From Bdellovibrionota bacterium (lineage in GTDB: Bacteria; Bdellovibrionota_C; UBA2361; JBGSMV01), in NCBI GenBank assembly GCA_044356455.1, contig JBIKWF010000006.1, positions 4,477 to 68,476 of the forward strand: DNA of 64,000 bases, written 5' to 3'. This document shows positions 18,851 to 19,185 of this stretch, in pieces. The position numbers were made by a program, and so were the translations under genes. Position 1 is the first letter of the stretch, and each line of letters starts with the position of its first letter. The notes beneath the pieces were generated by a model. The model had not been told where the DNA came from and ran no database searches. It was given only the letters and a program-made list of their open reading frames with translations.

Positions 18851-18926
18851 GCCGCTCTAGCTCAGCTGGTAGAGCAACTGATTCGTAATCAGTAGGTCGT
18901 GGGTTCGAGTCCCATGGGCGGCTCCA
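18851..18926 (+). tRNA. tRNA-Thr (anticodon CGT) including encoded CCA
   Basis: Manual cloverleaf: acceptor GCCGCTC/GGGCGGC, D-arm GCTC-AGCTGGTA-GAGC, anticodon stem ACTGA/TCAGT with loop TTCGTAA, T-arm GTGGG-TTCGAGT-CCCAT, discriminator T, then CCA. Confidence 0.8.
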
Positions 18927-18928
18927 TA

Positions 18929-19185
18929 TTTCCCGCTCGGCGCTCTGCCCAGGGACTCCGCCCCTCGCTTCGCTAATCGCTCGCACACCCCGTCCTCTTC
19001 GCTGGGCTTCGCCCTTCGAAGCTTTATTTACTTTGGCGACCCCATGCATTTCCCGCTCGGCGCTCTGCCCAGGGACTCCGCCCCTCGCTTCGCTAATCGC
19101 TCGCACACCCCGTCCTCTTCGCTGGGCTTCGCCCTTCGAAGCTTTATTTACTTTGACGACCCCATGCATTTCCCGCTCGGCGCTC
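18929..19185. repeat. 120-bp direct tandem repeat, 2 full copies plus about 15 bp, starting 2 nt after the tRNA-Thr CCA
   Basis: tcccgctcggcgctctgcccagggactccgcccc... recurs at 18931, 19051 and 19171. The unit end (gaccccatgc) resembles the tRNA 3' end (cccatgggcggctcca). Confidence 0.85.

Follow-up and report, generated by a model that had tools for sequence, protein, structure and literature searches.

Introduction

The tandem repeat array of the Escherichia coli tyrT operon carries the termination region of that operon, as described in the tyrT literature of 1978–1981. On the K-12 sequence, we find 3.1 copies of a 178-bp unit directly after tyrV of the tyrT-tyrV pair, each unit ending in aatccttcccccaccaccatca, which is an exact copy of ~22 nt of the tRNA-Tyr 3′ end. 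The rttR small RNA and the tpr open reading frame (ORF) are annotated in the first unit, and rttR is described as being encoded by one repeat unit of the operon (passage in PMC3318445, citing Bösl and Kersten 1991). Here, we describe an array of similar layout in a 64,000-nt stretch of contig JBIKWF010000006.1 (assembly GCA_044356455.1, positions 4,477–68,476; hereafter the window), which derives from an uncultured member of the Bdellovibrionota whose nearest GTDB representatives share 62%–64% ApaG identity with it. The array is built of 120-bp units and lies immediately behind tRNA-Thr(CGT), the sole tRNA gene of the window. We consider it to be a recent tandem amplification of the 3′ trailer/terminator module of the tRNA-Thr(CGT) transcription unit, a reading to which we assign a probability of roughly 0.55.

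The E. coli tyrT-rttR repeat array is the closest known parallel of the window array. Both run head-to-tail right after the tRNA and on the tRNA strand, with ~3 units of 100–200 bp made of trailer sequence, and in both the unit length lets a spurious or tiny ORF read across units. In contrast to the exact tRNA copies of E. coli, the end of the window unit matches its tRNA 3′ end at chance level. The window unit also comes from a different phylum, has neither sequence nor Rfam similarity to RtT, and holds a motif that is kept across lineages, where it mostly occurs in single copy.

A second point of comparison is 3′ETS-leuZ, a 53-nt sponge RNA excised from pre-tRNA (PMC8166272). It is likewise a short structured segment directly after the CCA, within the same transcription unit and conserved among relatives (PMC8166272), whereas the window segment is tandemly repeated and patchily distributed. 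Finally, a regenerated tRNA gene accompanied by a displaced tRNA fragment is an accepted mark of tRNA-targeted islands (Islander; passage in PMC4383910), and an initial annotation of the window had read the array as scars of serial integration and excision at the tRNA.

Results

A 120-bp Tandem Array Directly behind tRNA-Thr(CGT)

Tandem Repeats Finder (TRF) places the array at 18928–19185, with a period of 120 bp, 2.2 copies, 99% matches, and a score of 509 (Table 1). It begins one base past the CCA, on the tRNA strand, of a gene that ARAGORN and Rfam both identify, in agreement with the initial annotation, as tRNA-Thr(CGT). The two full repeats and the partial third that had been annotated are borne out by TRF, and the third copy extends, in diverged form, to ~19219. 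Units 1 and 2 differ solely at G19036 versus A19156, and both close, as had been noted, with gaccccatgc (19038–19047 and 19158–19167). An exact 18-mer, ATTTCCCGCTCGGCGCTC, stands at the unit starts and occurs three times, the last time at 19168–19185, where it repeats the first 18 nt of the unit exactly. Because the third copy is diverged and units 1 and 2 are near-identical, the array records one old and one very recent duplication.

Loci and contigs compared with the window are referred to by L-numbers, and the 3′ flank of tRNA-Thr(CGT) was read in ~25 loci. The array is real, since L004, a metagenome contig assembled independently from a second sample, has this array too, its single-nucleotide polymorphism (SNP) pattern included. 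L004 contains at least 3.15 units, the tail of a further unit preceding the shared ones, and three more contigs of this population, which is present in JGI samples 3300044855, 3300042518, and 3300059473 and in SRR11646531, break within or just before the tRNA. The number of units probably varies or has been reduced by assemblers collapsing the repeats.

With near-identical units, a partial last unit, an apparent copy-number difference between samples, and assemblies that break at the array, the locus resembles minisatellites (variable-number tandem repeats, VNTRs), which arise by slipped-strand mispairing or unequal crossing-over. Unlike VNTRs, its unit is a conserved, functional-looking module that is tied to one gene and forms arrays in three lineages.

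Table 1. Features of the tRNA-Thr(CGT) Locus and Related Repeats in the Window
Feature	Position	Strand	Evidence and remarks
tRNA-Thr(CGT), CCA encoded at 18924–18926	18851–18926	+	ARAGORN; Rfam RF00005, 68.9 bits
Copy 1 of the trailer motif ("module A"): TTTCC[G/A]CTCGGCG[C/T]TC-GCCC, then hairpin 1 (AGGGAC/GCCCCT, A.C mismatch) and ...CACCCCG	18927–18995	+	nhmmer E 9e-15; covariance model 68.9 bits
Repeat unit 1, 120 bp: U-rich linker, trailer motif, terminator-like hairpin, end piece GACCCCATGC	18928–19047	+	TRF, repeat search
Terminator-like hairpin GGGCTTCGCCCTTCGAAGCTT, then TATTTACTTT, unit 1	19004–19034	+	Terminator scan
Trailer motif, copy 2	19047–19115	+	nhmmer E 1.5e-14; covariance model 66.9 bits
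Repeat unit 2, 120 bp	19048–19167	+	119/120 identical to unit 1
Terminator-like hairpin and U-run, unit 2	19124–19154	+	Terminator scan
Third copy, diverged and truncated, ~10-nt insertion	19168–19219	+	Covariance model 19167–19219, 18.5 bits, E 0.008
Inverted 17/19 match to tRNA T-arm/acceptor (18901–18919)	19196–19214	−	Repeat search; 0/1000 shuffles reached the score
REP-like hairpin GGTAGGGCGCC...GGCGCC ("family 2"), end of tRNA trailer region	19234–19261		Related copies 19684–19750, 53591–53620, 61173–61202
Partial MITE-like copy	19307–19428		Inverted matches to 53772–53893
DUF5710 ORF, 65 aa, accessory	19492–19689	+	Pfam PF18974, E 9.2e-18
FabH gene	19745–20767	−	
MITE-like family copies	4341–4479, 7981–8117, 16033–16176, 23918–24056, 37164–37308, 42778–42894, 54886–55007		

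A Trailer Motif Shared by Distant Lineages

The first ~65 nt of the unit, comprising a U-rich linker and two small hairpins, recur directly 3′ of the CCA of tRNA-Thr(CGT) in relatives. Carriers are L025, L030, L109/L111, L114/L115, and L121, which belong to at least five distant Bdellovibrionota lineages, and the consensus reads TTTCC[A/G]CTCGGCG[C/T]TC..GCCC-AGGGGC-loop-GCCCCT-CTC-GCCxC-loop-GxGGC-TTCACCCC. The nhmmer E-values across carriers range from 1e-19 to 2e-4. A covariance model of the motif, run on the window with filters off, found no site besides those behind tRNA-Thr(CGT) in a search space of ~0.6 Mb, made up of the 64-kb window and 538 kb of relatives' loci. Set against the L030 clade, the window is 64%–73% identical over the initial 70 nt of the trailer, which is above the shuffle maximum, and 82%–89% identical over the tRNA itself; the 100 nt 5′ of the tRNA are random in the same comparison (45%–51%, with shuffles at 54% and at most 62%).

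The motif forms arrays in three lineages. Alongside the window with its 120-nt period, L121 holds 2.0 copies of 114 nt at 100% identity, its contig ending inside the array, and L030 holds two copies 123–124 nt apart (a 124-nt period) at 92% identity, together with a 40-nt copy. Past the initial 65 nt, units from the different lineages can hardly be aligned, and the amplifications are therefore independent; such independent amplifications share a cause that lies in the locus itself. The differing periods fit unequal crossing-over and do not fit serial integration and excision. What we observe directly is how the repeats are built, that the motif copies are homologous, that they stand exclusively behind this tRNA and form arrays in three lineages, and that the scanned ORFs include no integrase.

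Further along, each window unit has a terminator-like hairpin; the pattern of an intrinsic terminator, a G+C-rich stem-loop with a U-run behind it on the tRNA strand, is found at three sites in 1.4 kb, against 1.4 expected. In every unit of L121, too, the motif ends in a terminator-like site. A comparison of the window hairpin with the trailer of L044 and L112 was marginal (p 0.03 and 0.93) and was not used. In these two relatives, the first 70 nt after the tRNA form an alternative trailer that starts with a UUCG-loop hairpin, and this hairpin has a compensatory change of its own (GCTTCC/GGAAGC versus GCCTCC/GGAGGC).

The motif might itself be the selected product. In this alternative, which we regard as rather unlikely, the ~65-nt motif or the 120-nt unit would be a processed stable small RNA set free from the tRNA precursor, similar to 3′ETS-leuZ or RttR, both of which provide precedents, and its copies would be selected for dose. 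Several features are consistent with this: the motif is conserved where the regions upstream of the tRNA are no longer alignable, it always stands directly after the CCA, and it occurs in tandem in three lineages. The U-rich linker is a possible site of RNase E-type cleavage and is present again at every boundary between units. Hairpin 1 retains its stem despite a variable loop, and one pair of hairpin 2 changes in a compensatory manner (GCCAC/GTGGC in L030 versus GCCCC/GGGGC in L114 and L121). However, many close relatives lack the motif, among them L112 and L044 with identical tRNA and leader, and its hairpins are damaged both in the window and in L109, where they carry two mismatches. There is also no thermodynamic signal, and Rfam 15 matched only the tRNA, with no RtT homology, whether the gathering threshold was applied or E values up to 10 were allowed.

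A miniature site-specific mobile element, non-autonomous and inserting repeatedly right after the CCA of tRNA-Thr(CGT), would account for a constant insertion point and for a motif that is patchily distributed yet 64%–73% identical across deep splits. A second "CTCCA + TTTTCCCACTCGGC" junction, 65 nt after the tRNA of L047, could be read in the same way. We consider such an element very improbable. The unit has neither terminal inverted repeats nor a target-site duplication, no copy lies away from tRNA-Thr(CGT) in the ~0.6 Mb searched, no candidate transposase or integrase was found, and the arrays differ in period (114, 120, and 124 nt), with unrelated sequence past 65 nt.

Likeness of the Unit to the tRNA

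The initial annotation held that the end of each unit resembles the tRNA 3′ end and suggested aligning the unit with the tRNA 3′ half as a check. The alignment gives no similarity above chance (p 0.67), and the related comparisons fall in the same range (p 0.5–0.8). The end piece GACCCCATGC shares only the hexamer CCCATG with the tRNA. Aligned locally on the same strand, the circularized unit and the tRNA reach a score of 14, compared with a mean of 14.6 for dinucleotide shuffles (p 0.52), and the best match to any relative's 3′ half has p 0.84. A profile of 19 tRNA-Thr(CGT) 3′ halves finds no direct-orientation match in the 400 nt downstream of the window tRNA. These tests have power, as they detect the true duplicates of L010 and L036. 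A recognizable direct copy of the 3′ part of the tRNA, as attL and attR sites would provide, is thus absent from the window.

Significant similarity to the tRNA is confined, in the window, to an inverted match to the T-arm/acceptor segment, with weaker forms of it (p 0.02) in each unit. This match overlies hairpin 1 of the third, degenerate copy of the motif and is not shared by the consensus of the motif family; two GGG/CCC hairpins probably resemble each other here by a coincidence specific to the lineage. In the predicted precursor fold, the 3′ part of the tRNA pairs with the matching stretch of unit 1 and does not form the T-arm; if transcribed, this inverted pairing could interfere with folding of the tRNA.

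These results bear on the proposal of the initial annotation that each unit is a separate att-like scar of repeated integration and excision. The identity of units 1 and 2 at 119 of 120 positions includes the 100 nt outside the att-like end. Independent integrations and deletions would not yield identical units, and serial integration is disfavored for this reason; in addition, precise excision of integrated elements leaves no scar. Instead of scars, the repeats are 99% identical copies of a module with a conserved trailer motif and a hairpin.

Rearrangement of the tRNA-Thr(CGT) 3′ Flank in Relatives

Real direct duplicates of the tRNA-Thr 3′ end do occur in three relatives, L010, L036, and L114, where they lie 50–170 nt downstream (E 3e-7 and 2e-6). 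L010 carries an exact 35-nt copy, comprising the tRNA 3′ end and 8 flanking nt, ~105 nt downstream of the tRNA and ~127 nt from the original (4430–4640, minus strand). Beyond the duplicate lies a 1341-aa ORF (68–4090) with weak DNA-primase similarity and no Pfam match. In L036, the copy belongs to a different tRNA allele and is found 50 nt downstream (E 2e-6).

The profile match in L114 is weak (E 0.05), and here the duplicate is confirmed by alignment to L059. From +168 on, L114 matches L059, starting at tRNA position 56 and continuing past the end of the tRNA into the flanking gene, the aligned regions being 1500–1690 of L114 (minus strand) and 2047–2119 of L059. The order in L114 is a tRNA of a new allele, the motif with a spacer (167 nt), an 18-nt remnant of the older L059-type tRNA, and the native flank, such that the motif forms the first 65 nt of the segment between tRNA and remnant. 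By its sequence, this arrangement clearly reads as tRNA gene replacement or as an integration scar.

A fainter trace may exist in L109, in which a remnant-like stretch, TCGAAT-CCATGTGCCGCTC at +98 to +117, matches the tRNA 3′ end at 17 of 20 positions (p ~0.01, uncorrected). In the multiple alignment, CCCCATGC / GACCCCATGC of the window and TTACCATGTGCC of L030 stand opposite this stretch.

Homology between relatives with the motif (L109, L121, and L114) and relatives without it (L112 and L044) ends exactly at the CCA. Nearly every lineage has its own set of genes downstream, accessory ones among them, such as those for a D12 methylase, Hypoth_Ymh, DUF4143, and the primase-like giant ORF; in L006, methyltransferase, FtsJ, and flagellin genes occupy the interval between tRNA and FabH. 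Because homology stops at the CCA and the downstream genes vary, the 3′ flank of tRNA-Thr(CGT) is, as judged from these comparisons, a hotspot of recombination and rearrangement in relatives. In L018, L029, and L032, which belong to separate lineages, a gene for a D12-class DNA adenine methyltransferase lies no more than ~80 nt 3′ of tRNA-Thr(CGT).

The initial annotation had called the locus a decayed integration hotspot and had proposed a search of relatives for an island with an integrase. With PHROGs, no integrase is among the 21 families matched in a scan of 48 ORFs from 20 relatives, all 180 aa or longer and situated within 6 kb 3′ of the tRNA. A phmmer search with IntA and XerD queries was discarded because XerD failed to find even IntA, and a Pfam scan of the relatives' ORFs (25 of 52 families listed) would alone be insufficient for excluding an integrase. 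The interval between tRNA and FabH in the window likewise holds no integrase or island, only the DUF5710 ORF, and no intact element was seen at the tRNA-Thr(CGT) site among the relatives compared. Nor was the unit found among mobile elements: a motif scan of IMG/VR gave only 16 chance matches in high-GC coding DNA, and blastn of the unit against phage and plasmid collections gave no matches. A 22-mer scan of Joint Genome Institute (JGI) metagenome contigs recovered one unrelated high-GC contig only.

The locus thus has features in common with the attR scars of islands, namely a site at the tRNA 3′ end, direct repeats in L010, L036, and L114, and a variable flank. The window repeats differ from such scars in being 120 bp apart, not kilobases, and identical throughout, not just in an att core, and the window lacks a significant direct tRNA-derived repeat as well as the integrase and the island. 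Serial integration would be in keeping with the displaced tRNA 3′ fragments of the three relatives, with a flank that is a synteny breakpoint with accessory genes, and with a window interval that contains mobile-repeat debris and one small ORF. Set against the identical units, the chance-level likeness to the tRNA, and the negative searches for integrases and for mobile copies, it is an improbable origin of the array. Of the earlier hotspot claim, we retain the rearranging flank, with its tRNA 3′ duplicates in relatives, and not the derivation of the repeats from serial integration.

Upstream Region, Downstream Interval, and Other Repeats

Linkage of apaG and tRNA-Thr(CGT) is common in the group of the host. 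The window tRNA is 98.6% identical to that of its nearest relative, L005, which has no encoded CCA; across the ~25 tRNA-Thr(CGT) loci, an encoded CCA is present in about half of the lineages and missing in the others. The ApaG proteins of L005 and the window are 89% identical; at the tRNA, the two sequences diverge right after the discriminator base. Within the apaG-tRNA spacer, the only stretch common to L005 (at ~315–330) is AAGGTTTGCTATA at 18741–18754, ~100 nt 5′ of the tRNA, which may be a −10 region with a leader of ~95 nt. The L030 clade has GGTATAAA at a comparable distance upstream of its tRNA. A sigma-70 scan of the region upstream of the window tRNA did not find a promoter.

Downstream of the array, the 0.8 kb that the initial annotation had described as holding only a partial miniature inverted-repeat transposable element (MITE), a family-2 hairpin, and a DUF5710 gene indeed contains these, and a second palindrome of the repetitive extragenic palindromic (REP) type besides. 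The DUF5710 ORF is not found at this position in relatives and weakly resembles two families of phage proteins of unknown function. The G+C-rich hairpins of REP type (GGTAGGGCGCC...GGCGCCCTACC) are found in either orientation; two of them, forming an inverted pair of 28 nt with 460 nt between its members, enclose the DUF5710 ORF. The MITE-like family is palindromic, ~135 bp long, with runs of ACCTCTGTG/CACAGAGGT decamers, and has at least seven copies in the 64 kb, which form imperfect hairpins.

Since the 120-nt period equals 40 codons, ORFs cross the repeats, one of 131 aa on the minus strand (18774–19169), which overlaps the tRNA, and one of 64 aa on the plus strand (19044–19238). Annotation pipelines are likely to call such ORFs genes in error. 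Coding by the unit was rejected, as a 1-nt indel in the conserved part breaks the frame between the window and L030 and there are no Pfam or PADLOC matches. PADLOC was run on five translations (ApaG, DUF5710, a 141-aa ORF at 20958–21383, and the two repeat-crossing ORFs) and matched none of them. We also rejected a type III toxin-antitoxin system of the ToxI/ToxN type, in which the RNA repeat directly precedes the toxin gene, the next ORF here being that of DUF5710, 300 bp off and past the REP hairpin and MITE fragment, and a dispersed MITE or REP element, the unit having a single site in the 64 kb and no terminal inverted repeats.

Discussion

Our data are most consistent with amplification of the trailer/terminator module behind tRNA-Thr(CGT). 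We infer the mechanism of this amplification, the transcription, processing, and termination of the unit, and the tRNA origin of the unit end as follows. An ancestral event would have duplicated the tRNA 3′ end, leaving ~100 nt of trailer between the copies, either through site-specific integration of an element that was later lost or through tandem duplication of the tRNA followed by a 5′ deletion. The resulting direct repeats could then pair out of register. Acting between unit starts, unequal crossing-over or slippage during replication would expand and contract the array and homogenize its units, while the unselected tRNA remnant would decay and the trailer motif would be retained beside the functional gene. 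In the window, the exchange points would now be the unit starts, marked by the 18-mer. The end piece GACCCCATGC is, by analogy and by its position in the alignment, most likely a fully decayed remnant of an old tRNA 3′-end duplicate.

In the extant locus, the tRNA promoter would drive transcription into unit 1, the precursor would be cut in the U-rich linker to give the mature tRNA, and most transcripts would stop at the unit-1 hairpin, the later units serving as redundant back-up terminators or being neutral passengers. Unequal exchange explains the identity across all 120 bp, the old and diverged last copy, the unit count of L004, and the differing periods, none of which serial integration and excision accounts for. 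The duplicates of L010, L036, and L114 are a precedent for the proposed starting state.

Several observations weigh against this account. The motif alignment is thin, with seven sequences from ~5 lineages, and hairpin 1 never covaries in it. In the window copy, hairpin 2 is lost and hairpin 1 mismatched, and the unit folds no better than shuffles on either strand (z = 0.26). The terminator-like hairpin of the window is weak, with four G-C pairs and an interrupted U-run. The distribution of the motif is patchy: it is missing in the nearest relatives of the window (L005, L006, L012, and L014) and also in L112 and L044, which have an identical tRNA to L030, and several losses or horizontal spread are therefore needed. 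Evidence for copy-number variation comes from one short-read contig. An origin of the unit end from the tRNA 3′ end is not demonstrable from the window alone, where p is 0.5–0.8, and rests on the positional homology to L109, whose p of ~0.01 is uncorrected for ~13 tests, and on analogy.

More tentatively, and as a minority possibility, the motif may be an undescribed functional trailer RNA, or a processing or termination element, dedicated to tRNA-Thr(CGT) in an uncultured Bdellovibrionota clade, with its repeated amplification in three lineages reflecting selection for dose. If true, this would constitute a second, independent rttR-like system outside the enterobacteria.

The locus offers a second example of the tyrT-rttR architecture, in a different phylum and with no sequence homology, and it documents a rearrangement hotspot 3′ of tRNA-Thr(CGT) in a poorly known group. 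The array breaks short-read assemblies, and it is also a potential strain marker. Tandem repeats adjacent to tRNA genes in metagenome-assembled genomes (MAGs) should not be read automatically as integration scars. In this family of loci, a small conserved motif is tied to one tRNA gene and can be tested as a trailer-derived RNA.

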